In this document: positions 291-57,804 of the stretch, piece after piece
How positions within the stretch are numbered: the stretch's first letter is position 1
How the letters are laid out: each line of letters begins with the position of its first letter
Translations under genes and position numbers: made by a program
Notes under the pieces: generated by a model
Told to the model about the DNA's origin: nothing
The model's input: only the letters and a program-made list of their open reading frames with translations
Database searches by the model: none
Assembly: GCA_963826975.1 (NCBI GenBank)
Contig: CAWGZJ010000005.1
Location: forward strand, 302,959-366,958
Direction: 5' to 3'
Length of the DNA stretch: 64,000 bases
DNA from: an uncultured Alphaproteobacteria bacterium
GTDB taxonomy: Bacteria; Pseudomonadota; Alphaproteobacteria; Acetobacterales; Acetobacteraceae

Positions 291-378
291 TACCTCTCCC
301 GCAAGCGGGAACCGTACACCTCTCCCGCTTGCGGGAGAGGTCGAGCCGCGAAGCGTCGAGGGTGAGGGTCGAGCCGCC
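291..378. repeat. Dispersed palindromic repeat family A (ACCTCTCCCGC-N-GCGGGAGAGGTCGAGGCGCGAAGCG-CGAGGGTGAGGG), copy 1
   Basis: The same ~60-90 bp unit recurs at 22600-22656, 33627-33684, 48430-48850 (x3) and 59296-59390. Confidence 0.8.
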
Positions 379-1874: not shown

Positions 1875-2261
1875 TTGACTCCGGTCCAAACAGAGGGGGG
1901 GGGTGGGGGGAGGGGTTCGGCGCGGCGTGGACCTTCGGTGGGACCCTGGCACCAACCCCTCCCCCCAACCCCCGCCCTCAAGGGGAGGGGCAGAATGCTT
2001 TGCCCCGGTCCGCCCTTATCCTGATGTCTATGGCGCACCCCTGGCCTCGCGAACACCACGCCTGGCGCGGCGGTGCCGGCCGCGCCATGAGCCTGTCCCG
2101 CGCGTCCGGCCCCCCGCCCCATAGGGTCTTTGTCGCGATTTCGACGTTCGGCGGTCTGCGAGTGGCGCACCGCCGCCCACAAGACGGCCAGCACCATCGC
2201 CAGCCGCGGCGCTATCATACACCTCGCCCGGTTGCGGGCTTGGGCCGCGAAGAGCGGACGA

Positions 2262-3878: not shown

Positions 3879-5008
3879 ACCGCCACCCCGCTACCCGCGA
3901 CCTGGCGCGGCCCACCGCGGGCGGCACCGCCGCCATCCCGCGGCGCGGCCGCGGTGCCGTCGGGCCGGCGAGACACCAGGCCCGCGTGGTCCGCCGCCGC
4001 ACCAACGTTCTCAGCATCGCCCCGCGGCTCCCGGCCAGGCTGGCCATCCGGTTCGGCTGCGCCGGCTCCCGCCCGCGCACCCGGCCGGGCAGGCCAAACC
4101 TCCAGCGTCCAGCCATCGCCTTGTTCCACGGTCACGCCATCCACGCGCGCGACCTGTCCGGATGACGGTATGCTGGGCCTGCTGGGCGGACCCTCAGCCG
4201 CCACTGCGACCGGCGCCGCCGGCCCGCCCGCTGCCGTCTCGGCCCGCGGCTCTACCCTTTCCGTCGTGGCGCGCCCGGGGGCAGGCTCCGCCGGGCGAGC
4301 CACGGCGTCTTGCTCCCCAACCGCCGACCCCGGGACCGCCGTTTCACGCCGCCGAGGGCTTGCCGCCGGGTTGTCCACTGGGTTTCCCACAGGACTTTCC
4401 ACTGGGTTGCCCACCGGGTTGTCCACGCGATTTCCCCCCGACTTGCCCACTGCGCTTCCCTCTGGGCTTCCCACTGCACCTCCCACCAGTTTGCCCACTG
4501 AATTTCCCACTAAATTTCCCACCGGGCCCGCGCCAAGGAGCGGACCGTCGGCCGGCTCGCGCCGGCACCAGACCGCGTCCATCGCGTCGAGATCGAACCC
4601 GTCCACCGCCCGCACGTCGCGGAACGGCATCACCCGGAATTGCCGCCGCTCCAGCGAGCGCTCCAGCCGAGCCACCGTCTGCGCCAACGCATCCATCAGG
4701 CGGGTCAGCCGGTACATCTCCAACATGTCCAACCCCGGTGCGTGGATCTGCGCCGCAAGACCGTCCGCCATGAACTGGAACACCGCGATCTGCGCCGCCA
4801 GGTGCCCCTGTGCCGCGTCCATCGGCACCCGCGCGGCAACCTCCTCGATGACCCGTGTCACCCGCGCGTGGCGCCAGGCGGCGGTCGCCGCGGCGGGCGG
4901 CGGCGGGATGGCAGCAAACACACCGTTCAGCAGATCCGGCGGGATGTGGTACTCCGGCATCAACTCCTGGATGACGCGGAAGGTGATGGCGGCGGGATCT
5001 TCGGACAT
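3869..5008 (-). CDS. Hypothetical protein, N-terminal part (MSEDPAAITFRVIQELMPEYHIPPDLL...), with NPVGNPVESPVGNPVDNP low-complexity repeats; possibly fused by a frameshift to 2262..3878
   Basis: Long ORF preceded by an AT-rich promoter-like stretch at 5040-5100; it overlaps the next ORF by 10 nt in a different frame. Confidence 0.35.
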   Translation of the reverse strand: MSEDPAAITFRVIQELMPEYHIPPDLLNGVFAAIPPPPAAATAAWRHARVTRVIEEVAARVPMDAAQGHLAAQIAVFQFMADGLAAQIHAPGLDMLEMYRLTRLMDALAQTVARLERSLERRQFRVMPFRDVRAVDGFDLDAMDAVWCRREPADGPLLGAGPVGNLVGNSVGKLVGGAVGSPEGSAVGKSGGNRVDNPVGNPVESPVGNPVDNPAASPRRRETAVPGSAVGEQDAVARPAEPAPGRATTERVEPRAETAAGGPAAPVAVAAEGPPSRPSIPSSGQVARVDGVTVEQGDGWTLEVWPARPGARAGAGAAEPDGQPGREPRGDAENVGAAADHAGLVSRRPDGTAAAPRDGGGAARGGPRQVAGSGVAVWV

Positions 5009-5334
5009 GATGATACTCCCAGGCTGAAATCCGGTTGGTCGTTTCCGACAGTTATACTAACTTTGTGGAGAAGTCAAACTAACATTTGAATGGTACCGAT
5101 TTACTGGGTCGGAGTGCCGGTGCCGGTGGTGCAGAGCGGGCCGCGGCAAGCAAGCAACCAGCGGACACAGCGTTTCACCGCGCGCACACGGTGTCACACG
5201 GCGCAGCCCATTGGCCGCAACCAAAACAGGCTCGACCTATGGCGCCGCCATCGACCTGCCGCCGATCCAAGTGGTCGAACCGATGAACCTGTCGCGTTTT
5301 CGGCCATGTGTTGGTGCGAAGGAAGCAAGGATTA

Positions 5335-5437
5335 TTCAGCCGCCGATGAACGCCGATGAACGCCGATGACACCGTGCTGGCCTGTGAGGCGTTGGCCTTA
5401 TCGGCGTTAATCGGCGTTCATCGGCGGCTGAACCAGC
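5335..5437. other. Large intergenic hairpin with ~23-bp perfect stems (TTCAGCCGCCGATGAACGCCGAT ... ATCGGCGTTCATCGGCGGCTGAA)
   Basis: Inverted repeat read directly; it lies in a 1.7-kb region (5010-6780) without a convincing ORF. Confidence 0.6.
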
Positions 5438-5998
5438 TTTGCCGCGCCGGGCACGATCGTGGGCAACAGGCCGGAAGAATAATCTCAATCAAAATGTTAT
5501 CGTCGTGTCAGCGGAAATTCTTCGCGCGGTGCAATGATTCCTGGCGTTAGCCATGCAGCGGCAGCAAATGGCGCTACCCGCAAGGTCGCCGCGGCCGGCG
5601 CACCAGTCACCGGCGCGAAGCGCCATCAAATCTTCTCAGTGCAACTCCGTGCGCACTCGGTGTAACTCCGTGTGCACTTGATTGCTTGACCTGCCCGCCG
5701 CGCTCCCCTCCGGCAACCCACGCACGGAAATCGCGTGCCTCGCTCGGTGCCTGCGCGGGCACCGGCCCATTTGCGTTCTTTGCGGTTAAAAACCTGCCTT
5801 ACTGGCGCAGCCGCCCTCGCGCAGTCAGCCTCCGGCTCATCATCGGACACCGGGGGGCAAGCGAAGAAGATTGAACCGCAAATGAACGCAAATGGGTCCG
5901 TGCCGAGCCGACCTTCCGAGCTAAACCTCGGCTTCGCCCCGGCAAAGTTAGTGGGTAACTTGCCAGCGTTGACCAGCCCCGGTGAAATCCGTGTTTGT

Positions 5999-6099
5999 GA
6001 TAACTATTCGCAATGAATAATCACCTCGGAGACACGGCGAAGAATATCAAGTTGATCACTTGGCTTTTCCGCTCTCTGCCGCCGTGTCTCCGTGGTGAT
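5999..6099. repeat. MITE-like repeat family C, copy 1 (AT-rich arm GATAACTATTNGNAATNAANAATCACC, ~29-bp terminal inverted repeats, core ATCAAG-N-GATCACTTGGCT)
   Basis: Related copies at 15290-15454 (variant), 15613-15715, 29764-29908 and 40147-40256. Confidence 0.75.
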
Positions 6100-6151
6100 C
6101 CTCCCTTGCGGACACGCGGCAGGGCACAGATCCCGGCGAGCATCGGCTATA

Positions 6152-6445
6152 TCAACCGCTGAACCTCGCGCATTGGATGCGCCGCTTCGCGTCCGCTAAT
6201 CGATCGACGAGGTGCTTCGGCAATCGGCGGGCTCGCGCAATGTCGATGGTGTCACGGCCCGCTTCATCCACGATCGTCGGATCCGCGCCCGCCTCGATCA
6301 GCAAGTCGAGGGTCTTCAGCCGTTTGAGGCGAGCAGCGTAGTGCCCGGAGTCCTTCATTTTGCGGGGTTCGAGAAGACGCCGCCCCGCGCACCCAACGCC
6401 GCGAACAGTTCCTGCGAACAGCATAAACCCGGTCAGACCCGACAC
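6152..6445 (-). CDS. Ankyrin-repeat-like fragment (LIEAGADPTIVDEAGRDTIDIA)
   Basis: Short ORF with an ankyrin repeat signature; no clear start context. Confidence 0.25.
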   Translation of the reverse strand: MSGLTGFMLFAGTVRGVGCAGRRLLEPRKMKDSGHYAARLKRLKTLDLLIEAGADPTIVDEAGRDTIDIARARRLPKHLVDRLADAKRRIQCARFSG

Positions 6446-6783
6446 CGGCGTAGTTCAGCATCGGCCACCGGAGCGCATTGCGGTGAACCGCCCAGGCACC
6501 ACGGCACCAAATCATTAGGACCGAATCCCCGCGCTTCTTGGCGTCGTGGCGTCTTGGCGGTTCAACTAACGCGGCGAGCAACTCACTGCCGTGCCGATCA
6601 TCCGAGCTCCCGGTCCACCAACCCAACCGCGCCGCGCACCTCCAACCTACCGCCACGTTAACCCTGCGTCATGCGCCGCCCGCGCAGCCGTCGGCTGCTT
6701 GCAATGCCCGCCGGTTCCGCTATGCCGGCCAGCCGACAGATACCGGCGCATGATCCAGGGGGTCCCGGCGTGGGAGACAAAGT

Positions 6784-15165: not shown

Positions 15166-15289
15166 GGGGACTCCGGAGTTGTGGCCTAGGGTCGGATTGA
15201 GTTGGCCAAGCAGCGAGGCCAAGGTCGTCGTGGTCGATTAAAGCACGATATCGGCCGGCAGGGGTCGTGTGTTGCAACGAGCAAGCAAG

Positions 15290-15454
15290 CCAAGGAAGCA
15301 AGGATTCCACCACAGAGGCACGGAGACACGGAGAAGGAATTGATGCATTTCGCGCGGTGCCTGAACGGACACCAGCGCGAAGCGCCCAAAATTCCTGCTT
15401 CTCCGTGTCTCCGTGCCTCTGTGGTGGAATCCTTGCTTCCTTGGTTTGCTTGCG
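15290..15454. repeat. MITE family C, variant copy with ~45-bp terminal inverted repeats
   Basis: CCAAGGAAGCAAGGATTCCACCACAGAGGCACGGAGACACGGAGAAG ... reverse complement at the other end. Confidence 0.7.
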
Positions 15455-15612
15455 ATGGAGCGAATATCCCCGATATCCGGTCACCGGAGCGCTTGGGGCA
15501 GGCTTCGCAGCTGCTCAGGCCGGGCCTGCGGGTGGGCCATGGCGCAAGGCAGCGCCAGTGGGGCATTCATTCGGGCGCATGGTACACCGTTCGCTCGCGG
15601 AAATCAGTATTT

Positions 15613-15715
15613 TTGATAACTATTTGTAATAAATAATCACCGCAGAGGCACAGAACCCAGGAGAAAAATATCAAGCTGATCACTTGGCTCTTCTACTCCG
15701 TGCCTCCGTGGTGAT
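15613..15715. repeat. MITE family C, copy 3
   Basis: TTGATAACTATTTGTAATAAATAATCACC arm followed by the conserved core and TIR. Confidence 0.7.
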
Positions 15716-15821
15716 ACTTGCCAGCGGGCATGCGGCCAGGCACAGCTTCCTGCAAGCATCGGGCATATCAGCTCGCTACCAACCCCATGCCTGTCCACCC
15801 CACGCGCACGCCCGCACCCCG

Positions 15822-21261: not shown

Positions 21262-21340
21262 GCTTAACTACTCCCCCTCCCCTTGAGGGAGGGGGTTGGG
21301 GGGAGGGGTCGGCGCACAATCGGGGGAGGGGTCGGCGCAC
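21262..21340. repeat. Palindromic repeat family B (CTCCCCTTGAGGGAGGGGGTTGGGGGGAGGGGTC), copy 2
   Basis: Other copies at 505-536+1875-1992 (split by IS481), 57676-57785 and 60956-61078. Confidence 0.8.
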
Positions 21341-22596: not shown

Positions 22597-22802
22597 CTTA
22601 ACCTCTCCCGCCCTTACGCGGGAGAGGTCGAGGCGCAAAGCGCCAAGGGTGAGGGTGCCCCCCACCACCACCCCATCAACAGCCGCCCACCACAGCTTAC
22701 TGATCCCCGGCAGGGCGGAAAAGCGAAGCGCCTACCGCCTCTCTCACCCCATTGCCGCGTTCAAGGACGATATCGCCAACCGGTGCTTCCCACGCAACCG
22801 CC

Positions 22803-29586: not shown

Positions 29587-29763
29587 TGGCCGAGCAGTCG
29601 AGTTCTCTCCACCCGTCATGGCCGGCCCCCGGGTCAAGCGCCCGAGGACAGGCTCCACCCGTCATGGCCGGCGAAGGCCGGCCATGACGCGGGGTGGGCA
29701 GCGTACGTCAATACTTTCGACCGCTGGTATACCCCTTGCTCGAAGGAATCTATGCTCTGCCGT

Positions 29764-29908
29764 ATGATAGGAAGCAGAGAATCACCACAGAGGCACAGAG
29801 ACACAGAGACACAGAGACACAGAGACACAGAGCAGAAAGAGCAAGTCGTCAGCTGGATATTCTTCTCTGTGTCTCTGTGTCTCTGTGGTGATTCTTTGTT
29901 TCTATCAT
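29764..29908. repeat. MITE family C, copy 4 (internal CAGAGA microsatellite)
   Basis: TIRs ATGATAGGAAGCAGAGAATCACCACAGAGG / CCTCTGTGGTGATTCTTTGTTTCTATCAT. Confidence 0.7.
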
Positions 29909-29966
29909 TCATCGAAAGGACGGATTTCCATGGATAAGTGGTATATAACGCAATGACAGCCAGTGC

Positions 29967-33755: not shown

Positions 33756-35415
33756 TCAGCTATGCCAACGGAACTCCTGCGGCTTCCGCGCCGAGCCCAG
33801 ACTGAGCTTGACGTTGACCAGCGCCGGCCCCCTGAAGTTCATCGCCTCATCCAGCGCACCGCGCAGGTCCTTCGGGTCCTCGACATAGAACCCCTTGCCG
33901 CCGAACGCCTCCATCATCAGGTCGTAACGAGCGCCCCAGATCAGCGAGTTCGGCCGCATATTCAGCATCGGGTTGTGCGGAATTTCCTCCATCCCCGGCC
34001 CGATGCCGCCGTTGTTGAACACGACGATCTTCGCCGGCATTCCGTAACGACACAGCGTCTCCATCTCCATGCCGGAGAAGCCGATCGCCGAGTCCCCCGA
34101 GACGTGCACCACCGGCCGATCAGGATGCACGACGCACGCGGCGATGACGATACCCAGGCCGACGCCCATCGTGCCATAGCTGCCGGCGTCCAACCGCGAG
34201 CGCGGCAGGAAATTCGGCAACTGAGTGCGGCCGATATCCATCGTGCTGGCGCCCTCGCTGCAAACGATCGCGTTCTTCGGCGTCCAGGCCGCGACATCGC
34301 GCAACAGCCGATAGTAGCCGCCCGGCGCCGAGTTCATCGGCGATCTGCGGCGCGATCAGCGCAGCGTTTTCAGCCGACTTCTTGGTGATCGCCGCGCGCC
34401 ACGGCGTCTCCTTCGGATAGAACCACTGACGGCTTTCCAGCGCCTTGTTCAACTGCCCCACGATCGCCTTGCCGTCACCGCACAGCGCGACCTCGGCCGG
34501 CTTGTTCTGGTGCATCGCTTCCGGTTCGATATCGAGCTGAATGACCCGCACATCCTTGTTGTAGCGCGGCGGCAGGCCGAAATGCATGATCCAGTTGAAG
34601 CGCGCGCCCATCAGGAACACCACATCGGCCTGTTGCAACGCCAGGCTGCGTGACGCGCCGACCGATAGCGGGTGGTCGTCGGGCATCACGCCCTTGCCCA
34701 TGGGCGAGGCCAGGAACGGCACTTGTGTGCGCTCGATGAACGCGCGCACCTCGTCCTCGGCACGCGAGAAGGCCATGCCTTTGCCGATGATCACCAGCGG
34801 CCGCTCGGCCGATTGCAGCACGTCCAGCGCCTGCTCGACGTATTGCGGCATCGTCTGGATGCGCGGCGGCTCCGGGCATTTCGCGACCTGCATCGCCTTG
34901 TCCACGTCACAGCCGCCGGTGATGATGTCGTCCGCGATGTCAAGATAGGTGGCGCCCGGCCGGCCGTAGATCGATTGCCTGACCGCCATCTCGACGTAGA
35001 ACGGGATGCGGTGCACGTGCTCGATGCCGTGCGCCCATTTGCACAGCGGCGTCGCGGCCAGAACCTGGCGCTCTTCCTGGAAGGCGCCCATGCCGTTGCG
35101 GTAGGTTTCCGATGCGCCGCCGATCAACAGCATCGGCCAGCAATTCTGCTGCGCATTCGCCAGGCCAGCCAGACCGTGGATGACGCCCGGACCGGTCACG
35201 ACGATGCACGAGCCCGGGCGCCCCGTCAGGTAGCCGACGGCACCGGCGGCGTACGACGCGGTCTGCTCGTTGCGCATCCCGATATAGGGGAGGCCAACCT
35301 TCTGCGCTGCCTCGGCGAGCGGACCCACCGGGAACCCCACCACGCCGAACATGAATTGCACGCCTTGTTCCTTGAGGCTTTTCGCCAGCAAGTCAGCGCC
35401 TTTGATCTCAGCCAT
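33756..35415 (-). pseudogene. oxc: Oxalyl-CoA decarboxylase (ThDP-dependent), split by a single frameshift near 34330-34390
   Basis: N-terminal 431-aa ORF (34120..35415) and C-terminal 193-aa ORF (33756..34337) together match full-length Oxc; the junction is ...ENAALIAPQIADE / MNSAPGGYYRLL. Confidence 0.75.
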
Positions 35416-35848
35416 GTTTCCTCCTGTCAGCGGGCGGTTACGATCGGGCCCGTTACGAAAAACTCCGAACGACGATCACATTACGCATATTTGGCTCCGC
35501 GGCAACTCGAGGCGCCCCCCGGGGAGAGTCCAAGGTCGAAAAGCCGCGCGGCCCGGCCCGCATCCAGGCGCGGAACCCGTAAGAACAGGCTGTCGTTCGA
35601 GCGCCGGCCGAGCGTGCGGGCCGGCGTGGCGTATCCGATTGTGACACCGATCCGACGCACCATGTCGCGAAGAATGCGCAGCATGGTCGCGCGCGCGACC
35701 ATTCGCAGACCACGGTCATCGTGGGATTAGTAGTAATACCCGGTGTCCGAATGATCGACCGTCGGCGATACACACACCGTCATGCCGGCGAAAGCCGATA
35801 TCCACGCCTTTTTCGGTTCTTCGCTGATTTGTGTGAGTAGCAACGAGT

Positions 35849-36064
35849 TCAGACTGGCAGCCTGAGATCAAGCTTTCCGGCGAGTGGATAGACCATGGGC
35901 TTGAGGTTCCTGGTTGAGCGATAGCCGCGCGCCTTTGCCTTGGCGGCCTGAACGAGGCTGTTGATGCCTTCGATCCGACCGTTGGCGATCTTGCTATCGA
36001 ACCAACGCAGGATGCCGTCCCAGTGGTGCTTGACGGTGTGTGCTGCATCGCCAGGTTCCAGCAA
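35849..36064 (-). pseudogene. ISL3 family transposase C-terminal fragment
   Basis: HWDGILRWFDSKIANGRIEGINSLVQAAKAKARGYRSTRN matches the conserved ISL3 transposase C-terminus; no upstream remainder. Confidence 0.6.
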
Positions 36065-36197
36065 TTCCCAATAGGCCTCGGCATCCCGTAGTGTCTCAGC
36101 ATCAAACTAAAGACTGCTGATACCCGGAAGTTTTCCTATTTGCCTTCCGGTAAGCGCGCCGCGGTCTCGACGCAGTAGGCGATCTGGGCGCCCGAGG

Positions 36198-36866
36198 TCA
36201 CTCCTTCCGCACGATCCATTTCGGTCCCGCGACGCGGAGCGGCGCGGCGATCGACAAGGAAAACTCGTCCGCAGCCTTGACGACGCCCGGCCAACTCGGG
36301 CCGTAATCGTCGCCCATCAGACTGCCGCCGGGCGCAAGGATTTTCCAGTAGGCCCGCGCATCTGCCAGGACGGCTTCATAGTCGTGCGCGGCATCAATGT
36401 GGATCAGGTTGGGCCGGATGCCCGCGTGCCAAAGCAACTCCGCAGCGCCCGTCGAGGCTTGTGCCAGCGGCACCACTCTGTCCTGCATGCGCGAGCGCAC
36501 CACGTTGGACAGGAACTGCTCGTACAGCATGGGGCGCCCGAACTGGCGCGGGATCAAATCGAAGAACCGCCTGCCGGGCATGCAGTGTTCAGGGCTGCCG
36601 AGGAACGTATCAACTGCGATCACGGCGCCGTCGATCTCGCGCTTGCGCATCAGGTCCGCCAGGAACAGCGTCGATGCGCCCTTCCAGACGCCGACATCGA
36701 CGATGATGCCAGGCCGCGTCTCGGCAACGATTTCCTCGAACACGGGCGAGGTCGAGTTCCATCCTTGCAGGTCCAGCGCGAATGTCGGCACGAAGCCGGC
36801 GTAGATATCGGCGCCATGCAGCTTTTGCATGACATCGGCGGCGCGGGTAGTTTGTTCGGGATCCAT
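36198..36866 (-). CDS. Class I SAM-dependent methyltransferase (O-methyltransferase-like)
   Basis: GIIVDVGVWKGASTLFLA SAM-binding motif. Confidence 0.7.
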   Translation of the reverse strand: MDPEQTTRAADVMQKLHGADIYAGFVPTFALDLQGWNSTSPVFEEIVAETRPGIIVDVGVWKGASTLFLADLMRKREIDGAVIAVDTFLGSPEHCMPGRRFFDLIPRQFGRPMLYEQFLSNVVRSRMQDRVVPLAQASTGAAELLWHAGIRPNLIHIDAAHDYEAVLADARAYWKILAPGGSLMGDDYGPSWPGVVKAADEFSLSIAAPLRVAGPKWIVRKE

Positions 36867-36976
36867 GTAGATCTCTCCAATGGTCAATTTAGCCGGGATC
36901 GGCGGGGCTTCCACACACCGCCGGCCCCAATCTATATGCGGAGATTGATAATGAGCAGAGATGGCGACGGCGCGCT

Positions 36977-37167
36977 AGCCCGCATTTCTCACACTGTTGC
37001 GGGATGATGGCCCAGGGCAGTGTCGGGCATTGTCGCGCCAGCAGGTTTTCGCGCCGCCGCCAATACCGGGTGTATTCGCCCAATGGGTACATGAGCAACG
37101 TGCGAAAACCTGTTGGCGCGGCAAGGACCAAGCCAGCACCCGCGAGAGTGTGAGAAATGCGCGCTAG
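36977..37167. repeat. MITE family E copy 1 (~190 bp; TIRs GCCCGCATTTCTCACACTGTTGCGGG / CCCGCGAGAGTGTGAGAAATGCG)
   Basis: Second copy in opposite orientation at 62080-62256. Confidence 0.8.
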
Positions 37168-37472
37168 TGGCCTGAAGTCGATCACAACGTTGGGTATAGC
37201 CTCTTCAGTTTGATGCGAGCGTTGGCGGTGGTGAACTGCCAATCGGCTTTGGCGTGGTTCTTGTTGCGATCGTCCTCCCAGGCGGCGACTTCCTCGATCA
37301 GGGTCTGCTTGTCGGCGATGCGCCGGTGTTGCCTGACGACGCTTTCAGTCCCTCGACACCGGCTTAGATGGCTGGCTATGTATGGGGCGTTAGGGCATTC
37401 TCGCGCGTTCGGTGGGCACACGGGGCAAGTTCAGTCTCGCCTGATCTGCAATGCACAAGGGGGGAACAAGCC

Positions 37473-37712
37473 ATGAGCTTCACCGACATCTCGCCCGACG
37501 CCCTGCGCATCGAGGCCGTAGCCAAGCGGCTGTGCCATCTGATGACCGTGAACAATCACGGGCGCCCCTGCCGCGTCGAGATGGACGGCTCGGGCCGGTT
37601 CGACTGCGCCTGCGGCCAGTGGCGTCGCGCCATGGATTGGGCCGCCACCATTGTCCGCGCGCACGATGCTGTGGACCCGCTGCGCATGTTCTGCAAGCCG
37701 CCGTCTGAATAA
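37473..37712 (+). CDS. Small hypothetical protein (MSFTDISPDALRIEAVAKRLCHLMTVNNHGRPCRVEMDGSGRFDCACGQWRRAMDW...)
   Basis: ORF with Cys/His-rich segment in the accessory patch; weak. Confidence 0.25.
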   Translation: MSFTDISPDALRIEAVAKRLCHLMTVNNHGRPCRVEMDGSGRFDCACGQWRRAMDWAATIVRAHDAVDPLRMFCKPPSE

Positions 37713-38011
37713 CGATCACGCCGGCCGAGGTCGCGCAGACATACGCGGCGCCTTCGGCTGTGCGACTGCCTTGCGAATCCATAACGATGTCGGAATGAGA
37801 CTTGACGCCAGGCGATGCTTGCGAGTCAACGCGACCATGACGTGCCTCGGCGGTTCCCTCGCGGCCGCATTGCTGGTAGATTGCCCCAGAACTTTATGAG
37901 GTCTCTGGCGCCAGAAGGCGGCCAAACACGCGGCAAGGGGAGTTACACGGCCGGTCGAACGTCGATCATCATCGGCAATGCAGGGAATGTGGGTTTCGAG
38001 TTCGAAGAGGT

Positions 38012-38944
38012 TTGCAGGTGATGCCGGATGACCCATTGTCACAAACGGGACAGGCGCTCTGGGCGGAAGTGTTGGTGCGATTCCCGGACCCAGCCGCGGC
38101 ATGCCCGCGTGCGGCCACGATGCTGCAACGGTTCGATGAAGCGGGAGACGTCCTTCGGCAGGCGATGGAGCTGTTGCCAACTAATCGGAGTGTGATCTTT
38201 GCGCACGCGGAACTTGCGACGCGCCGCAACGACTGGGCTGGTGCCTTGGCGTGCCGGAACTCGCGGCATGGCTTTGCCCAGGCGCTCACCGTTCGCACCG
38301 GGTGGCCGCTTGATGTGTCTGGGCCGGAATGGTTCTTGAGAATGACTTCAGCACGGGAGAGTCTGATGATCGGTCCGATTGCCTATGATGTAGGAATGAA
38401 CAACGGGGATGACAGTGACTACTATCTCAAGAAGGGTTACAACGTCGTCGGAATAGATGCCAATCCGATTGTGTGCGAACAGGCGGCACGTCGTTTCGAT
38501 GTTGGTATCAAGGCGGGTAGGATCACCATCCTGAACCTTGGTGTAGGGTCGCAGCCGGGGCGCATGACCTTCTACGTCCACAAAGGACATTCGGTCCTCA
38601 GCACGTTTTGTCCGGAGCAGATCTTGTCAGGCGATAAGAACGATCTCAATCCAGAGGTATGGCAGCCAATCGACGTAGAGGTTCGACGTCTGTCGGATAT
38701 CGTGCGTTTCTTTGGTACCGGAGAATATATCAAGATTGATGTAGAGGGATTTGATGTCGTCGCTCTGAAGGATCTGAACGTGAATAAAATCTACCCGAAG
38801 TATATATCGGCTGAGGCGCACCAGGTAGATACATTCTGCCATCTGGTTGCCATGGGCTACACGGAATTCAAGTTCGTTCAGGGTGCGACCGGTACCACAC
38901 CCTGTTCAGCGACCACGAAATCGGCTTGCTCGGAGGTGGGGTGA
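38012..38944 (+). CDS. FkbM family methyltransferase with N-terminal helical (TPR-like) extension
   Basis: AYDVGMNNGDDSDYYLKKGYNVVGIDANP...IKIDVEGFDVVAL; the gene body is markedly lower GC than its surroundings. Confidence 0.7.
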   Translation: MQVMPDDPLSQTGQALWAEVLVRFPDPAAACPRAATMLQRFDEAGDVLRQAMELLPTNRSVIFAHAELATRRNDWAGALACRNSRHGFAQALTVRTGWPLDVSGPEWFLRMTSARESLMIGPIAYDVGMNNGDDSDYYLKKGYNVVGIDANPIVCEQAARRFDVGIKAGRITILNLGVGSQPGRMTFYVHKGHSVLSTFCPEQILSGDKNDLNPEVWQPIDVEVRRLSDIVRFFGTGEYIKIDVEGFDVVALKDLNVNKIYPKYISAEAHQVDTFCHLVAMGYTEFKFVQGATGTTPCSATTKSACSEVG

Positions 38945-39448
38945 CGAGGCACGCATTCCCCGGGCACTCCGCGGGGCCGTTCGGGGAGGACATTCCTGGT
39001 CCTTGGCTAGACAAGAAGACGATCCTTGCGTTATGGCAGCAGCGTGGAGGGGGATGGTGTGACCTCCACGCGCGCATGTCGCCGGTCAGTCCAGAATGAT
39101 GTTGCCATGGGCTCCTGGCCGGATATCCGCATAATTCGATACGGAATGCGGCTAGTCACGCCACGTCCTTGATTTTGGCGCCAATCCCCAAATCGATGTC
39201 TCCGCACTGTCGGAGACGTATCGTGACCGCGAAACAAACCGCCACAAAGAATGGTTCTTTGCTTCGACAAAGGCAAGCCGTGAATACCGGCCGGAATCTG
39301 TCCCCTGCGCAGGCGGGGGGTTCGTCGTCATCACGCAACGACGCGTGAACGCCGTCGCCAAATCGCAACAAAGGCGGGGCGAGAAGCCGCGGCCCCCCGC
39401 CCCGCCCCGAACTGCGGCGCAAAGCCGAACGCTGCCGCACGGGTCGCT

Positions 39449-39757
39449 TCAGAGCACCGAATACTGCATCCGTTCGCGCCGCGTCAGCTTCGGCAACCCC
39501 TGCTCCAGCACCAACGACTTGAAGTGCGCTGTCTGCTGGTGCGCCGCAAACGCCGCCTCATCCTCGAACAGCTCATAGAACAGGAAATGCCCGGGATTCG
39601 CCGCACCACGATGCACCAGAAACAGTTTCACCCTCGGTTCATTGCGCGCCGCTTCGCCCAGCCGCGCGAGGATCCCCGCCACCGCGTCCTCCTCGCCCGC
39701 CTTCGCTTCCCAGATCGCCGAGATCGCGACCCCGCTCGTGTATTGCTGTGACTGCAT
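39449..39757 (-). CDS. ABM-domain putative monooxygenase (YgiN-like)
   Basis: ~100-aa ABM fold sequence. Confidence 0.65.
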   Translation of the reverse strand: MQSQQYTSGVAISAIWEAKAGEEDAVAGILARLGEAARNEPRVKLFLVHRGAANPGHFLFYELFEDEAAFAAHQQTAHFKSLVLEQGLPKLTRRERMQYSVL

Positions 39758-39892
39758 GGTGTCCTCCTGTCGTGCATGACCACGCCACGGACCCTAGTCG
39801 CTATGCGGCGGCTTATGTTTCGGGCAACGCCGAACCAAGCGGTATCGCAGCACGCTTGGCGTCAGGCTGTTCCATCTGGCATACAGCGTCGC

Positions 39893-40114
39893 ATGACCAG
39901 CAGCATCGTCAGACGTTCAACGATCACTTGCCCGCGGTGCGGCACATCGAAGGCCGAGACGATGCCGACCGACGCCTGCCAGTTCTTTTATGATTGCAGC
40001 GGTTGCGGCACGCTGCTGCGCCCGCTTCCTGGCGATTGTTGCGTATTCTGCTCATTCGGCGACATGCCGTGCCCGCCGATCCAGTGCGGCGGCGGCAAGG
40101 GCAGCGCTGCCTGA
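39893..40114 (+). CDS. Small zinc-ribbon protein (CPRCGTSKAE...CSGCGTLLRPLPGDCCVFCSFGDMPCPP)
   Basis: Two CxxC pairs plus a conserved GDCCVFCSFG motif. Confidence 0.45.
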   Translation: MTSSIVRRSTITCPRCGTSKAETMPTDACQFFYDCSGCGTLLRPLPGDCCVFCSFGDMPCPPIQCGGGKGSAA

Positions 40115-40146
40115 TCCACCATTCGCCCGCGGAAATACGTGTCCTC

Positions 40147-40256
40147 GATAACTATTAGCAATAAAGAATCACCACAGAGGCACAGAGACACGGAGAAGAA
40201 CATCAAGTCGATCACTTGGCTTTTCTGCTCCGTGTCTCCGTGTCTCCGTGGTGATT
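40147..40256. repeat. MITE family C, copy 5 (ends in a T-run)
   Basis: GATAACTATTAGCAATAAAGAATCACCACAGAGGCACAGAGACACGGAG...CTCCGTGTCTCCGTGTCTCCGTGGTGATTTTCTG. Confidence 0.75.
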
Positions 40257-40334
40257 TTCTGCTTACGGACATGCGGCCCGGTACCGATTCCGGCAAGCAC
40301 TGCCTGACACCACCCGCGCGCCCGCAGGCGCCCG

Positions 40335-41192
40335 CTAATCCGCCCGGATCAACCCGCGATGGCTCGGCGCGTCGATGAACGCCAGCACCTCGGCGATCAG
40401 CTCATCCTCGCCATACGCCGCCCGCGTCTCCTCCAGCCGCTGCTTGAACACGCCCTCATGGCGGAACAGCATGCGAAACGCCGTATGCAGCCGGCCAACC
40501 TGCGCCTTGTCGAAGCCACGCCGCTTCAACCCGATCACGTTCAACCCGGCCAGCCGCGCGCGGTTGCCGATCACGCTGCCGAACGGGATCACGTCGGCCT
40601 CCACCCCGGAAACCCCGCCGATCATCGCCGCCCGCCCGATGCGCACGAACTGATGGATCGCCGCCGCGCCGCCGATCACCGCGTGGTCGGCGATGCTGAC
40701 ATGCCCGCCCATCACCGCGTTGTTCGCGATGATCACGTGATCGCCCACCTGGCAGTCGTGCGCGACATGCGCCACCGCCATGATCAGGCAATCCGCGCCG
40801 ACGCGGGTGACGCCGCGTCCCGTCACCGTGCCGCGATGGATCGTGCAGTGCTCGCGGATCTGCGTGCGCGCGCCGATCTCGCAACGAGTCGGCTCGCCCT
40901 GGTATTTCAGGTCCTGCGGCTCCAGCCCGACGGTGCAGAATGGGAACAGCACCACGTCGGGTCCGATCACCGTGTGGCCATCCACCACCACATGCGAAAC
41001 CAGGCGCGTCCCATCGTCGATCACCGCGTTGGCCCCGACGCTGCACCACGGCCCAATGCTGACGCCGCTCCCAAGCTCCGCCCCGCGCGCCACGATCGCG
41101 CTCGGATGGATCGAGACCGGCTTCGCCTTCGGGGCAAGCGCTCGTGTTCCAAGCACCGTTGCGGCAAGCACTGGGGTCATTGGGGGTGGCAC
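40335..41192 (-). CDS. lpxA: Acyl-ACP--UDP-N-acetylglucosamine O-acyltransferase
   Basis: Hexapeptide-repeat left-handed beta-helix and LpxA C-terminal domain. Confidence 0.85.
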   Translation of the reverse strand: MPPPMTPVLAATVLGTRALAPKAKPVSIHPSAIVARGAELGSGVSIGPWCSVGANAVIDDGTRLVSHVVVDGHTVIGPDVVLFPFCTVGLEPQDLKYQGEPTRCEIGARTQIREHCTIHRGTVTGRGVTRVGADCLIMAVAHVAHDCQVGDHVIIANNAVMGGHVSIADHAVIGGAAAIHQFVRIGRAAMIGGVSGVEADVIPFGSVIGNRARLAGLNVIGLKRRGFDKAQVGRLHTAFRMLFRHEGVFKQRLEETRAAYGEDELIAEVLAFIDAPSHRGLIRAD

Positions 41193-41384
41193 TCGCCTTG
41201 GTTGTTGCGCTGCGGCACCCTAGGTGGAGGCCCCGGGGTGGCCAACACAATCATTGTTGCTTCGTGTTTCGCCGATCGGCCTGTAACTGTTTGTTTCATA
41301 TAGAATTCCGGCGGAATTGCGGCCGCCCCCCAACCGATCCGGCCCAACCGATCCGGCATGATCCGTGGGAGCGCGCGCGGTGGT

Positions 41385-41891
41385 TCATCCGATCGATGGT
41401 GCGCGATCCATGATCATCGCCGTATAGGTGGCCTCGGCGACCGAGATGCCGTCGACCCGTGCCACCGCCACGAACTTCCAGACATTGCCGCGGTTGCGCT
41501 GCTTGGTGCAGTGGATGCGAAGCTGGTCGCCCGGCACCACCGGGCGGCGGAACTTGGCACCCTCCACCGACATGAAATAAACCACCCGGCCGGCGGCGTC
41601 GGGGCCCAGCGTCTCAACCACCAGGATCGCCGCGGTCTGCGCCATCGCCTCGATGATCAGCACCCCCGGCATCACCGGGTGGTTGGGAAAGTGGCCCTGG
41701 AAGAACAACTCGTTGACCGACACGTTCTTGATGCCGATCGCCGACTGGTTGGTCACCAGGTCCACCACGCGGTCGATCATCAGGAACGGATAGCGATGCG
41801 GAATCGCCTGCAGGATGCGGGCAATGTCCACCACTTCCACCACCGAGCCCGCCGGCGGTGCCAAGGTCGTTGCAATTGCCGATGCGTCCAT
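41385..41891 (-). CDS. fabZ: 3-hydroxyacyl-ACP dehydratase FabZ
   Basis: HRYPFLMIDRV...FFQGHFP...PGVLIIEAMAQ. Confidence 0.9.
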   Translation of the reverse strand: MDASAIATTLAPPAGSVVEVVDIARILQAIPHRYPFLMIDRVVDLVTNQSAIGIKNVSVNELFFQGHFPNHPVMPGVLIIEAMAQTAAILVVETLGPDAAGRVVYFMSVEGAKFRRPVVPGDQLRIHCTKQRNRGNVWKFVAVARVDGISVAEATYTAMIMDRAPSIG

Positions 41892-41896
41892 CGCGG

Positions 41897-43054
41897 TCAG
41901 TCCGTGTCCGTCCTCTTGCTCGCGGCATCCAAGCCGCCAGCATTCCCATCGCCACGTACCTCTTCGGCGCTTACCCCGTCGGCGCGTATCCGGTCGGCGC
42001 GAGACTTATCGCCGGCCGCCGCCTTGCCACCTCCTTTCGCCAGGCGGCGCAAAATTGCCACCTCGCGAAAGAACGCCCAACGGGACTGCGCCGGGCTGCC
42101 GACCACTTCCGTCCCGGCCGCCACGTCCGCCATCACCCCGGCCTGCGCGCCGATCCGCGCCGTGCGGCCGATCCTCAGATGCCCGGTCAGCCCCGCCTGG
42201 GGGCCGACCATCACGTGGTCTTCCAGGATCGTGGAGCCAGACACACCCGCCTGTGAAACGATCACACAGCCCAGACCCAGGCGCGCGTTGTGCCCGATCT
42301 GCACCAGGTTGTCGAGCCGCGAGCCGGCGCCGATCACCGTGTCCTGCAAGGAGCCGCGGTCGATCGTGGAGTTGGCGCCGACCTCGACGTCGTCCTCCAG
42401 GATGACCCGGCAGAGTTGCGGCACGCTGTGGAACCCCTCGCCGGTGATGGCGAACCCGAAGCCCTCCTGGCCAATGCGCGCACCGGGATAGACATAGACC
42501 CGGGCACCCAGCAGCGCGTGGCTGAGGCTGGCGTGCGACCCGATCCGGCAATCCGGGCCAAGCACCACGCCCGGGCCGATCACCGCCAGCCCGCCGATGC
42601 GGCAGCGCGGGCCGATCTCGGCACGCTCGCCGATCACCGCCAGCGGACCGATCTCGGCCGAGGGATCGATGATCGCGTCCGCGCCGATCACCGCCGTCGG
42701 GTGGATGCCGGCGCGAGCCGGCGGCACCGGGTGAAACAGCGCGGCGACCTTGGCCCAGGCAGCGTACGGCTCCGCGGTGACGATCGCCACACCACCGGCG
42801 GGCACGCGCGACGCCATGTCGGGGTGCACGATCACCGCCCCGGCGCGTGTGGCATCAAGCGCCAGCGCGTATTTGCGGTTGTCGAGGAAGCTCACCTGAT
42901 CGGCGGCGGCGGTCCGCAGCGGCGCCACGCCGGCCAGCATCAGCCGCCGTGGCTGCGCCTCGGCTTCCGCGGCATCCGCCACCGCGGCCAGCGTGAACGG
43001 ACCAGCGCGCTGAAAAAATCGTGGATCGCCGACAATCTCCGGCCAGTCCGTCAC
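41897..43054 (-). CDS. lpxD: UDP-3-O-(3-hydroxyacyl)glucosamine N-acyltransferase, with a Gly/Ala/Asp-rich C-terminal extension
   Basis: LpxD N-terminal domain plus hexapeptide repeats. Confidence 0.85.
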   Translation of the reverse strand: MTDWPEIVGDPRFFQRAGPFTLAAVADAAEAEAQPRRLMLAGVAPLRTAAADQVSFLDNRKYALALDATRAGAVIVHPDMASRVPAGGVAIVTAEPYAAWAKVAALFHPVPPARAGIHPTAVIGADAIIDPSAEIGPLAVIGERAEIGPRCRIGGLAVIGPGVVLGPDCRIGSHASLSHALLGARVYVYPGARIGQEGFGFAITGEGFHSVPQLCRVILEDDVEVGANSTIDRGSLQDTVIGAGSRLDNLVQIGHNARLGLGCVIVSQAGVSGSTILEDHVMVGPQAGLTGHLRIGRTARIGAQAGVMADVAAGTEVVGSPAQSRWAFFREVAILRRLAKGGGKAAAGDKSRADRIRADGVSAEEVRGDGNAGGLDAASKRTDTD

Positions 43055-43070
43055 ACTGGCTTCACCGAAT

Positions 43071-43896
43071 TCAGGGCTTCTTCGCCGGCGCGGGCTTCGC
43101 CGGGCTCGCTCCGCCAGCCGGGGCCGCCGCGGCTTGCGGCTTCAACTGCAGGACCGAAACCCCATCCGGCGGGATGGTCACCGAGGGCAGTACAGTGTTC
43201 ATCTCCGTGGCCACCTGGCCCGTGATGTCGAACTCGGGCAAATAGAGCGCGGTCTGCGGCGCATGCAGCACGAGGTTCATCCCGTGGGAGACCGCGACCT
43301 GCTGCACCACGTCGCGCAGCGTGCGCTCGATCTGCGCCAGCGCGTACTGGCCGGCTTCCTGGATGATCCGGTTGCGCTCGGCGAATTTGCGTCGCGACTC
43401 GGCGATCCGGTCCTGCAACTCGCGCTCCTTGGCGCGGATCTGCTCCGCGGTCATCTTGCCGCGGTCATTGGTCAGCGTCTGGCCAAGATCGCGCAACGTG
43501 GTCTGCTCCTTCTGGGCATCCTCGTTCAGCTTCTGGCGCCGTGTGCCCAGTTCCTTGTCAACCGCCTGATACGCGGTGGACCCGCGCATCACGTCTGGCA
43601 CCGAAATAACGCCCATGATCGCGGCCGGCGGGAAGTTGCCCTTCGGGATTTGCGGCACCACGGCGGGCGGCGGCAGCACCAACTGCAGTTGCTGCGGCGT
43701 GATCGCCGATTGATCCGCCTCCGCCCCCGCCCCACCCTCGACACCCGCGGCCGGGGCGGGCGCGGACGTTGGAGCGCCGGCGCTCGGTCGCGGCGCCGGG
43801 CGGGCCGCCGGCCGGGACTGTCCGGGGATGAAATAGTCCGGTGTCTGCGCCGGTGCCTGCTGCGCACGGCTCGCGGCAAGCGGAACCAGCAGCATG
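43071..43896 (-). CDS. OmpH/Skp family periplasmic chaperone
   Basis: Signal peptide then a long coiled-coil typical of Skp; positioned between bamA and lpxD. Confidence 0.7.
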
Positions 43897-43919
43897 GCGG
43901 CTATGGCGACCGTCGTCGC

Positions 43920-43990
43920 AAGCCAGGGATGGGCAAGCCAAGGATGGGCAAGCCAGGGATGGGCACGGCAGGGATGGGCAAGGCAGGAAT
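43920..43990. repeat. 15-bp tandem repeat (GCCAGGGATGGGCAA, about 4.5 units) in the bamA-skp spacer
   Basis: Read directly; it would encode an AHPWL repeat if the upstream Met of the ORF were used. Confidence 0.8.
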
Positions 43991-43997
43991 GGCGCAC

Positions 43998-46670: not shown

Positions 46671-46725
46671 AGATTGCTACTGGCGCCGTTACGGCCGAAA
46701 CGGCACCCGCCCGGGCGTTTACGCT

Positions 46726-46790
46726 GGTAAAAGCGGGCGTTTACGCTGATAAAGGGGGCGTTTACGCTGGTAAAAGCCGGCTGGCCCGGG
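46726..46790. repeat. 22-bp tandem repeat (GGGCGTTTACGCTGGTAAAAGC x3) in the divergent bamA/lpxI intergenic region
   Basis: Read directly. Confidence 0.75.
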
Positions 46791-47154
46791 TCAAAGCAGG
46801 CCGGCCCGTGAGAAAAAGCCCGCCGGCGCTTCGGCGTAATCGCGCCGCGCCGCGCCTACTGGGCCCGATGCAGACGCGCCGGAGTCGCATTGGTTTCGCG
46901 CTCCCCGCCCTCGGCCTCGCAAATCCTCAGCACTTGGCATATTGCCAGGTAGGTTCGCGCCAGCCCGAGGCGCGCCGCGTCGTCTGCCAGCAGCAGAAGG
47001 CATTCAATAATCCCGTCGGCCGCCGAGCCGACATGGGGGCCGACATGGGGGCCGACATTGGGAAGGGGGGCGTCCCTGGTCATGCAGCGCTTGTCCTTGG
47101 CGTGAAGCGACGAATGTCAGCTTCCGGCCATCATGCGCCCGCGATGGTTGCCGC

Positions 47155-48045
47155 GTGGTTGCCGTGACGCCGGGGGGAAACCGCGCCGATCCGGGGACGC
47201 GGCCGGCGCTGGGCATTCTCGCCGGCGGCGGACGGTTGCCTGGCAGGGTCGCCGCCGCCGCCGCCGCTGCGGGCCGCCCGGTGTTCATGGTCGGCCTCGA
47301 CGGCTTCGCCGACCCTCCCGTGCTGGCGCCCTGGCCGCACGAGGTGATCCGAATCGGCGCCGCCGGACGGATCCTGGCGGCGTTGCGCGCCAATCGGTGC
47401 GCCGACCTCGTGCTGATCGGCACGGTGCGGCGGCCATCCCTGCTTGCCCTCCGCCCGGATGCCGAAGGCGCCCGCATCCTGGCGCGAATTGGCCGCGCCG
47501 CGTTCGCCGGGGACGACGGGCTGCTCGCCGCGGTCATCAAGGTGCTCGGCGAGGAAGGCTTCCGCGTCGTCGGCGCGCACGAAGTTATCAACGAGGCGCT
47601 CGCCCCCTCCGGCGTGTTGGGCGCCGTGACGCCGGACGCCCAGGCGATGGCCGACATCGATCGCGGGATCGCCGTGGCACGCGCGCTGGGCGCGGTGGAT
47701 GTCGGTCAGGGCTGCGTGGTGCAGCAGGGCCTGGTCCTGGCGGTCGAGGCGGCCGAGGGCACCGACGCCATGCTCGCGCGCTGTGCCGCGTTGGCGCGAT
47801 CGGGGCCGGGCGGCGTGCTGGTCAAGCTGGTCAAGCCGGCGCAGGACCGCCGCGCCGACCTGCCGACCATCGGCCCGGGATCAGTTGGCGCCGCCGCCGC
47901 CGCCGGATTGCGCGGGATCGCCTTCGCCGCCGGGGCCACATTGCTGGCCGATCGCGCGGCGGCGATCGACGCGGCGGACAGGGCAGGCCTGTTTCTGCTA
48001 GGCCTGGATCCGGCGACCATATCCGAAGGAGGAGAACACACATGA
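47155..48045 (+). CDS. lpxI: UDP-2,3-diacylglucosamine pyrophosphatase LpxI (DUF1009)
   Basis: [11 protein letters not shown]...VFMVGL...[27 protein letters not shown]...[19 protein letters not shown] conserved LpxI blocks. Confidence 0.75.
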
Positions 48046-48428
48046 GCAGCTTTCTGCACACCATGATTCGCGTCGGCGATCTGCAGCGCAGCGTCGATTT
48101 CTACACCAAGGCGTTCGGCATGAAGGAGCTGCGCCGGCGCGACGTGCCGGACGGCAAATACACCCTGGCGTTCGTCGGCTACGGCGACGAGGACAGCAAC
48201 ACCGCGATCGAGCTGACCTACAACTACGGCGTGGAAAAATACGAGATGGGCAGCGCGTTCGGCCATCTGGCGGTTGGCGTACCGGACGTGGCAGCAGCGT
48301 GCCAGATTGCCGCGAGTGCCGGCGGCACGATCACCCGCCCGGCCGGCCCGGTAAAGTTCGGCACCACCATCATCGCCTTCGTGAAGGACCCGGACGGCTA
48401 CCTGATAGAACTGGTCCAGCGCCACTGA
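48042..48428 (+). CDS. gloA: Lactoylglutathione lyase (glyoxalase I)
   Basis: GGAGGAG RBS 7 nt upstream; [16 protein letters not shown]...ELTYNYG...GHLA glyoxalase I signature. Confidence 0.85.
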
Positions 48429-57785: not shown

Positions 57786-57804
57786 GCGCACCCAGAACCA
57801 CCCC

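Follow-up and report, generated by a model that had tools for sequence, protein, structure and literature searches.

Family C, a dispersed palindromic repeat, probably of the MITE/ERIC/Correia type, in uncultured soil Acetobacteraceae

Background

Several families of small palindromic repeats have been described from bacterial genomes. For the Correia elements a TA duplication has been demonstrated, and they contain an IHF site and promoters directed outwards. In the alphaproteobacteria, the Rhizobium-specific intergenic mosaic elements (RIME) combine palindromic modules into intergenic mosaics. The ERIC and YPAL palindromes are said, by De Gregorio et al., to act as RNA hairpins on termination or on mRNA stability. 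A bacterial MITE, by the definition of PMC3733652, measures 70–300 bp, has terminal inverted repeats (TIRs) of 15–30 bp and no coding capacity, and is mobilised in trans; the same paper describes MITEs as adjoining genes, as being transcribed and as stabilising or destabilising mRNA through their hairpins, and places REPs mostly downstream of genes. Correia elements and some BIME elements carry IHF sites, and Correia hairpins form in mRNA and show terminator or promoter activity depending upon their context (PMC2229807 and general background).

The repeat described here, family C, comes from a 64,000-nucleotide stretch of DNA (hereafter the window) of an uncultured member of the Acetobacteraceae (GCA_963826975.1, contig CAWGZJ010000005.1, positions 302,959 to 366,958). 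A sequence-only reading of the window had taken it to be either a MITE-like element or a family of small structured RNAs. The first half of that proposal broadly stands, since the copies are non-coding palindromes scattered over unrelated loci in several genomes; the small-RNA half finds no support. Family C is probably a palindromic repeat of the MITE/ERIC/Correia type, dispersed, without coding capacity and confined to one lineage, which would have spread by past transposition and which may possess terminator-like activity.

Results and Discussion

Copies in the window

All five copies named by the sequence-only reading are present in the sequence at the positions given for them; their full extents, parts and neighbours are collected in Table 1. 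The arm motif CTCCGTGTCTCCGTGGTGAT, with up to three mismatches allowed, was matched by seven arms against 0.01 expected by chance. The string GATAACTATT gave three exact matches, and four with at most one mismatch, against a chance expectation of 0.30, while the loop core GATCACTTGGCT was matched exactly in copies 1, 3 and 5. Judged against the chance expectations, these matches mean that the repeat is real. When the family profile was run over the window with nhmmer it recovered exactly four full copies together with copy 2, the latter as a weak match. Copy 4 is unequal in its two arms, with six octamer units on one and three on the other.

Table 1. Family C copies, their parts and their neighbouring genes. 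For the copies, the strand given is the one which reads GC arm, hairpin, U-rich arm. Coding regions were placed by GC3 and verified with Pfam. L numbers designate loci outside the window.
Feature	Position	Strand	Description	Found by
Copy 1	5978..6154	-	full element without the left (AT-side) terminus	nhmmer, E=2e-55
Copy 1, AT arm	5999-6019
Copy 1, inner stem-loop	6020-6099
Copy 1, upstream gene	6152-6454	-	weak ankyrin-like ORF; TCA at 6152-6154 is its TGA stop
Copy 2	15281..15453	.	hairpin-only relative	repeat search; weak nhmmer matches, E ~1e-4
Copy 3	15581..15770	-	full element	nhmmer, E=4e-55
Copy 3, AT arm	15615-15635
Copy 3, inner stem-loop	15636-15715
Copy 3, upstream gene	stop 15822	-	hybrid histidine kinase, stop 52 nt before copy 3
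Copy 3, other flank		-	amidohydrolase; copy 3 lies upstream of it
REP-like hairpin CGTCATGGCCGGCGAAGGCCGGCCATGACG and outer module GGGCAGCGTACGTCAATACTTTCGACCGCTGGTATA	29661..29731	+	abut copy 4 and form a mosaic with it
Copy 4	29725..29946	+	full element, inverted, most diverged (78% to consensus)	nhmmer, E=4e-35
Copy 4, inner stem-loop	29781-29892
Copy 4, AT/U-rich arm	29893-29915
Copy 4, first flank	stop 29586		penicillin amidase, convergent with the GNAT gene
Copy 4, second flank	stop 29967		GNAT, convergent with the penicillin amidase gene
Copy 4 against copy 5, inverted module	29810-29952 against 40108-40250		76% complementary	repeat search
Copy 5	40114..40305	-	full element	nhmmer, E=1e-60
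Copy 5, AT arm	40147-40167
Copy 5, inner stem-loop	40168-40255
Copy 5, upstream gene	stop 40335		lpxA; copy 5 is 30 nt downstream
Copy 5, other flank	39776-40114	+	small Cys-rich ORF, stop abutting copy 5
L001, upstream gene			629-aa ORF
L003, upstream gene			163-aa ORF
L004, upstream gene			EAL-domain protein; ORF runs 43 codons into the element
L006, upstream gene			amidase
L010, upstream gene			metallophosphoesterase
L011, upstream gene			alpha-amylase-family gene

Anatomy of the full element

The anatomy was derived from alignments of 14 copies, these being the four full window copies and ten from other genomes. A full copy is an imperfect palindrome of 180–220 bp (177–222 bp as measured). 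Alignment of the flanks of copies 1, 3 and 5 showed that conservation reaches well past the limits originally drawn around them, and the repeats of approximately 29 bp, which had been regarded as terminal, proved to be the inner stem of a larger palindrome. Beyond this stem the palindrome adds some 55–60 nt per side and has CTGRTATACCATTCGCTCGGGGAAATCCGTGTC ... GGCACAGATTCCGGCGAGCATTGGGTATATCA as its outer ends. Outermost are the ends CTGRTATACCATTCGCTCGGGGAAATCCGTGTC and GGCACAGATTCCGGCGAGCATTGGGTATATCAG, which are mutually inverted and begin CTGRTATACC; the element ends also read GTATACC/GGTATATCA and may be written as CTGRTATACCMATKCGCTCGG ends.

The sub-terminal arms are asymmetric, with AT-rich TTTGATAACTATTTGCAATAAAGA opposite GC-rich CCTTGCTTGCGGACATGCGGCAGGGC, the AT arm being one half of the asymmetric outer stem. 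At the base of the stem ATCACC and GGTGAT are invariant across the aligned copies; they are the only invariant blocks, and both had been required by the two search patterns. The inner stem is composed of 8-nt CACAGAGA/CACGGAGA units in variable number, and encloses a loop of about 20 nt (ATCAAGnnGATCACTTGGCT) containing a 4-bp CAAG/CTTG mini-stem.

Both the loop core and the AT arm had been attributed to three copies. Copies 1, 3 and 5 do have both, but the more diverged copy 4 also has the loop and, inverted as it is, the arm as well, which makes four copies with an arm. The description of the arm as nearly invariant does not hold across the family, where its mean pairwise identity is 0.78 as against 0.74–0.87 for the other segments, that is, a flat profile.

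Copy 2 has arms of 56 nt which are 98% complementary and are built of the family C 8-nt units. Each of its two sides has a base of the GC type (GCAAGCAAG..GGATTCCACC); the AT arm is missing and the loop is not that of the full copies. By its sequence it is a separate hairpin subfamily. A decayed hairpin of the copy 2 kind adjoins the L009 copy. In addition, some copies are flanked by an outer module (GTCAATnCTTTCGnCCGCTGGTATA) and by a hairpin of the REP kind, each of which is also found separately; the module adjoins the copies in L008, L001, L006 and L009 and stands alone in L023–L027 and L028. The elements therefore lie in mosaics of repeated modules and have a fuzzy outermost boundary.

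When the translated element was compared with 5.8 billion proteins only its own locus was matched. Indels of 8 nt between the copies shift every reading frame, and the element has no coding capacity. A spurious 75-aa "gene" has been called over copy 5.

Distribution

Ten further copies were located, some in a single MAG of a soil Acetobacteraceae and the others in metagenomes of acid or forest soils. The arm-plus-hairpin pattern, searched against one genome per species (185,579 species), was found in a single organism, Acetobacteraceae bacterium SMAG_U4398, at five loci; two other matches to the pattern, in AT-rich genomes, were dismissed as chance. The loop-only pattern was matched in five soil contigs of the JGI metagenomes, and all five also have the AT arm. 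Proteins identical or nearly identical to those of the window are encoded on JGI, ENA and NCBI contigs of up to 606 kb, although for GatB, and for LpxA read from its first start, no exact product was on record. More distant homologues of the window proteins carry the name Rhodopila sp., and 42 kb from two Rhodopila sp. relatives with approximately 83% nucleotide identity yielded no copy of family C.

No member of the family was detected among 72,556 plasmids, nor among viral contigs. The short matches which these collections did yield are due to low-complexity sequence or to plain tandem arrays of (CTCCGTGT)n, such as those of Burkholderia stagnalis, and a Thiodictyon hairpin in the plasmid collection has units of the family C type and is otherwise unrelated. 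Rfam, at its gathering threshold, returned two tRNAs only, and at E values up to 10 it added only sub-threshold matches to generic miRNA hairpins. A literature search for family C sequence strings matched no paper. As judged from these searches, family C appears to be restricted to an uncultured lineage of soil Acetobacteraceae.

Neighbouring genes and orientation

In ten copies a gene lying on the strand which reads from the GC arm through the hairpin to the AT(U)-rich arm ends 0–190 nt before the element. The 163-aa ORF at L003 is, as recognised by eye, presumably DUF3775-like. At three loci (copy 1, L003 and L010) the terminal TGA of the element is itself the stop codon of the gene. The copies had been thought to lie only beside accessory or regulatory genes; copy 5, which follows lpxA, does not conform to this.

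Among informative loci, seven have the orientation GC arm, hairpin, U-rich arm relative to the gene and one has the reverse (two-sided binomial p ~0.07), so that the bias is suggestive and not significant. Copies 4 and 5 and L006 are convergent and uninformative; L008 is the one that runs the other way, L005 has divergent genes on its two sides and L009 was left unassigned. Copy 4 is flipped relative to copies 1, 3 and 5 inside a window of monotonic GC skew, and orientation therefore follows the gene and not replication.

The AT-rich arm and the hairpin

The sequence-only reading had offered, as one of two options, that each copy is the gene of a small structured RNA, in which the AT arm is a sigma-70 promoter (TTGATA...TAAATAAT) firing into the hairpin; in such a model the hairpin plus U-run of copy 5 would be the terminator. 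It is true that the arm accompanies every hairpin, even in the copies retrieved with the loop-only pattern, and that TTGATA is the consensus at its position. However, a scan of the four full window copies for the sigma-70 consensus returned no sites, TTGATA is found in only 7 of 13 aligned copies, and the best -10-like hexamer is merely 13–14 nt from it where the promoter criterion is a spacer of 16–18 nt. The strand favoured by that reading folds slightly better in about half of the copies; summed over all copies the minimum free energies of the two strands are -1131 and -1136 kcal/mol, and copy by copy there is no consistent winner. The RNAalifold covariation term of +1.2 indicates that covariation is absent, and Rfam offers no relevant match.

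Copy 5 does end in GGTGATTTTCTG, giving a hairpin plus U-run, but the U-run is private to this copy and polymorphic: the 99.9% identical L013 has GGTGATTCTTGC at this point and the other copies have CCTTGCTTGC. Against the small-RNA proposal there are, furthermore, the drift of the copy 3 orthologue at or above the synonymous rate (see below), an arm no better conserved than the other segments, and the position of that arm, which on the transcribed strand mostly comes after the hairpin as a U-rich tail. We consider it extremely unlikely that the copies are RNA genes with their own promoter.

One might also see in the arm a protein-binding site, either an IHF-like bending site or the operator of a metalloregulator, which would join the genes beside the copies in one regulon. 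Amid GC-rich DNA the arm forms a partial palindrome (TGATAAC...ATAATCA), and IHF sites are present in Correia and some BIME elements. Yet WATCAANNNNTTR, read by eye, is unmatched on either strand of the consensus. The neighbours (lpxA and genes for histidine kinase, amidase, EAL, alpha-amylase and phosphoesterase) are functionally unrelated, the copies mostly come after genes and not before them, and the arm drifts neutrally with no more conservation than other segments have. There is scarcely any likelihood of a regulon of this kind. When the arm was compared by eye with the consensus sequences of attC, dif, IHF, DnaA-box, Fur/Irr/RirA-box and the Tn3-type 38-bp inverted repeat, none appeared to fit. 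Integron attC sites were likewise rejected for the element as a whole, its ends fitting neither RYYYAAC nor GTTRRRY and the copies being 10–15 kb apart beside housekeeping genes.

In the explanation that we favour, the "promoter-like" arm, as transcribed, would be the U-rich tail of the hairpin. Read along the gene strand, the inner stem (-30 to -63 kcal/mol) leads into UCUUUAUUGC, where 5–7 of 10 nt are U; the opposite strand has CCUUGCUUGC after the stem and mostly 3–4 T in 10 nt. An mRNA passing through a copy would thus contain the GC arm, a long hairpin (-30 to -60 kcal/mol) and then the U-rich tract. Co-transcribed as part of the 3'-UTR, such a hairpin, if it acts at all, would most likely terminate transcription or protect the 3' end of the upstream gene, for which in some copies the terminal TGA also provides the stop codon. 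A simple terminator consensus scan of the gene strand called none in the window copies, and there is partial pairing between the U-rich tail and the GC arm. At L003 a co-directional gene starts approximately 50 nt past the element, from which it follows that termination at that locus cannot be complete.

Evolution of the copies

Copies 2 and 3 share the hybrid-kinase/amidohydrolase locus. The SMAG species has this locus in synteny (L023, L024), and both hairpins are found there. Copy 3 and its L023 orthologue are 82.6% identical as compared with 86.1% and 87.3% for third codon positions in the flanking genes, so that the drift of the element is no slower than that of synonymous sites. In the AT arm the two differ at 8 positions in about 42 nt. 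The L023 orthologue of copy 2 is 91.9% identical to it and has in addition a 12-nt insertion of octamer repeats.

A comparison of empty sites in relatives had been suggested. In L028, a more distant relative, neither family C nor copy 2 occurs in the spacer of the gene pair that flanks copy 3. This spacer does not align at all, because of which the filled and empty junctions are unreadable and the site is not a clean empty one. The slipin encoded between copies 4 and 5 is, at the protein level, some 85% identical across unrelated phyla and uninformative as regards empty sites. Copy 1 sits in a segment which in L019, a relative of 92–95% identity, is swapped for two other genes.

Identity to the family consensus is 78–88% for the window copies and 86–95% for those in relatives, the latter having been retrieved with exact-match patterns and hence biased towards conserved copies. 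Copy 5 differs from its counterpart in the 99.9% identical L013 by one indel at the stem base. We would suggest that family C is an old dispersed repeat which was gained in the lineage and which in the window genome is now decaying in an approximately neutral manner. Given neutral drift, any function would be loose and structural.

Mobility

An alignment of the copies to define their ends and any target-site duplication had been called for; no unambiguous target-site duplication emerged from it. Where the youngest copies (L004, L006, L009 and L010) meet the flanking DNA, inspection revealed no direct repeat of at least 3 bp. TA is present at both junctions and is inseparable from the symmetric TG(R)-TA-TACC inverted ends. 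A partner transposase or IS element with matching TIRs was looked for in the window, the plasmid collection and the 31 loci, and none was found. At L023 an IS630-family element, flanked by a TA duplication, has inserted into the family C copy at its terminal TATA; it was considered as a possible parent and rejected, since its TIRs (TTAATCAGTCCATAAGTA) are unrelated.

Alternatively, family C might belong with the REP/REPIN or TIR repeats and move in single-stranded form through the action of a RAYT or TIRYT (IS200/IS605-like tyrosine transposase), which would explain the lack of target duplications and the mosaic clustering with other palindromes. The lack of a clear target-site duplication and the mosaics with the REP-like hairpin and outer module are in keeping with this. 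Nevertheless, at approximately 200 bp the element is far from the 20–40 bp of a REP, its ends are without an unpaired GTAG or CGTC tag, no Y1-transposase gene lies beside the copies in the annotated loci (pieces of up to 20 kb), and orientation follows the neighbouring gene and not one replication direction. We regard mobilisation by such an enzyme as unlikely.

A more elaborate possibility is a mobile "stop-and-terminate" cassette, which a putative recombinase would insert, by preference, in fixed orientation and without duplicating the target, into the last codons of genes and which would bring with it its own TGA, a hairpin whose length varies as its 8-nt units expand and contract, and a U-rich tail. 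This we hold to be very unlikely; if true, it would represent a mechanistically new small mobile element that remodels C-termini and 3' UTRs.

Returning to the MITE-like interpretation, it appears that a few related soil Acetobacteraceae had an ancestor in which the family became dispersed over unrelated intergenic sites, the copies presumably having been inserted at gene ends by past transposition. A size within 70–300 bp, dispersed copies, terminal inverted repeats and the lack of coding capacity are all properties of family C; as it has these MITE properties and fails as a REP, as an attC site and as a small RNA, it is filed within the known class of bacterial palindromic repeats, in which it is a new family.

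Significance

There is no evidence of a new biological principle in family C, which is an ordinary "junk or terminator-like" bacterial repeat. It has practical consequences nonetheless. Palindromic repeats break assemblies, and the contigs of two relatives end at a family C locus; the copies also yield spurious ORF calls. The 3' ends of genes can be altered, three copies giving the stop codon and one extending the EAL-domain protein. A profile of the family would improve annotation of the abundant uncultured soil Acetobacteraceae and could serve in strain typing.

Comparison with known systems

Compared by description, RIME differs from family C in the architecture of its modules, and no sequence relationship between the two is evident. 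REP, BIME and REPIN elements and the CGTC/GTAG palindromes resemble family C in being extragenic and mostly 3' of genes, in forming mosaics and in lacking a target duplication (PMC3733652). REPs measure 20–40 bp and are tagged with an unpaired GTAG or CGTC, those with GTAG having a RAYT besides, whereas family C is about 200 bp long and untagged, with no RAYT seen nearby.

The Correia/NEMIS elements of Neisseria share with family C a MITE-like character, long inverted ends starting with TATA, TA at the junctions and a location beside genes. In family C, unlike Correia, the TA is inseparable from the ends, and there is neither an IHF consensus nor a promoter-like site.

ERIC/IRU and YPAL (Enterobacteria and Yersinia; 127–170 bp) are, like family C, non-coding palindromes in transcribed intergenic DNA by the ends of genes (PMC3733652). 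They are also like it in the asymmetry of their arms, as a result of which the two orientations are not equivalent. Family C has no sequence similarity to them, and differs in its greater length (180–220 bp), in its soil Acetobacteraceae host and in a stem made up of 8-nt tandem units in variable number.

Palindromic repeats accompanying family C

The palindromic family C repeats stand beside other short repeats. A REP-like hairpin (CGTCATGGCCGGCGAAGGCCGGCCATGACG) and an outer module of approximately 35 nt (GGGCAGCGTACGTCAATACTTTCGACCGCTGGTATA) both recur, beside family C copies as well as in isolation, and where they adjoin family C the arrangement is a BIME/RIME-like mosaic. CGTC-type repeats have been reported to be absent from the Acetobacteraceae (PMC3733652).

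Location of REP-like hairpins, outer modules and other recurrent palindromes
Feature	Sequence examined	Position	Basis or number
REP-like hairpin (CGTCATGGCCGGCGAAGGCCGGCCATGACG) with outer module	window	29661-29731	recurrence beside family C copies
Hairpin/outer-module recurrence	L008, locus with family C	~560-655	
Hairpin/outer-module recurrence	L001, locus with family C	~2820-2900	
Hairpin/outer-module recurrence	L009, locus with family C	~965-1000	
Hairpin/outer-module recurrence	L023, syntenic to copy 2/3 locus	5690-5912	
Hairpin/outer-module recurrence	L028, distant relative, no family C in the spacer of the gene pair at the copy 3 locus	4590-4625	
REP-like family (CTCTCCCGCTTGCGGGAGAGGTCGAGGCGCGAAGCG..)	window	320-369, 22607-22656, 48446-48805 (3 copies), 59302-59351	n=6 in window
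G/C-run palindromes (CTCCCCCTCCCCTTGAGGGAGGGGG..GGGGGGAGGGGT)	window	1876-2014, 21268-21315, 57676-57804, 60959-61098	

The second REP-like family (CTCTCCCGCTTGCGGGAGAGGTCGAGGCGCGAAGCG..) is also present in the soil Acetobacteraceae genome SMAG_U4398, where it adjoins a family C copy in the right flank of L001. Within the window a REP-like palindrome further forms part of a 155-bp unit repeated three times in tandem (48378-48840; 90-97% identity), and every unit carries the 3' end of a glyoxalase-like ORF (its final ~20 codons with the stop codon) and then the palindrome. The G/C-run palindromes stand singly or in inverted pairs, with 91-98% complementarity, and there is in addition an inverted repeat of approximately 280 bp (36976-37170/62075-62257) whose arms are 89-91% complementary and 25 kb apart.

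Two more long hairpins (5320-5445 and 5768-5897) lie in the strain-variable segment directly to the left of copy 1. Their arms are built of short tandem units, namely the 10-nt GATGAACGCC and CAAATGAACG-like units; the architecture is like that of family C but the sequence is different.

Alterations at family C sites

In one copy from another locus (L004, 7156-7256) the GC arm adjoining the stem has been replaced by AT-arm sequence. GGTGATTCTTTATTGC can be read there on either strand, a pattern that suggests arm-to-arm correction inside the palindrome. The copy 3 orthologue in L023 has been interrupted by an IS630-family insertion sequence (4047-5165; DDE_3 transposase, TIR TTAATCAGTCCATAAGTA, TA duplication) inserted exactly into its terminal TATA, and an extra sequence of ~115 nt follows this insertion sequence.

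The contigs of two close relatives (L019 and L020) both break off, at their position 1, at the equivalent of window ~15234-15247, just upstream of the amidohydrolase gene, where the copy 2 and copy 3 hairpins are located. These shared ends suggest that the repeats interrupt metagenome assemblies.

The lpx cluster and copy 5

Based upon the annotation of the 99.9% identical contig L013, the lpx cluster is rearranged (region considered, window 35400-48100). The genes bamA-ompH-lpxD-fabZ-lpxA are on the minus strand and end at copy 5, with lpxI divergent and upstream of bamA. Downstream of lpxA are ~4.7 kb of low-GC3 accessory DNA, encoding FkbM/TylF-type methyltransferases, an ABM protein and an ISL3 transposase fragment, and copy 5 is situated at the junction. 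A small Cys-rich ORF (39776-40114; ..CPRCG..CSGCG..GDCCVFCSFGD..), for which the Pfam match was weak and to a zinc ribbon only, ends exactly at the end of the copy 5 AT arm. In the window the TPP-enzyme gene (33756-35475) reads as two ORFs that overlap (33756-34355 and 34120-35475), against a single called gene of 552 aa in L013; a frameshift or a sequencing error may account for the difference.

Comparison with a plasmid-borne hairpin

Plasmid pTs485 (146.5 kb) of the gammaproteobacterial Candidatus Thiodictyon syntrophicum carries, at L016 1495-1580, a hairpin composed of the CACAGAGA/CACGGAGA units that also build family C, and there are three such places on the plasmid. This hairpin lies ~20 nt past the stop of the gene for formylmethanofuran dehydrogenase subunit C, with ATTTCTTCTTTC directly after it. 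The likeness to family C may reflect convergence or low-complexity coincidence.
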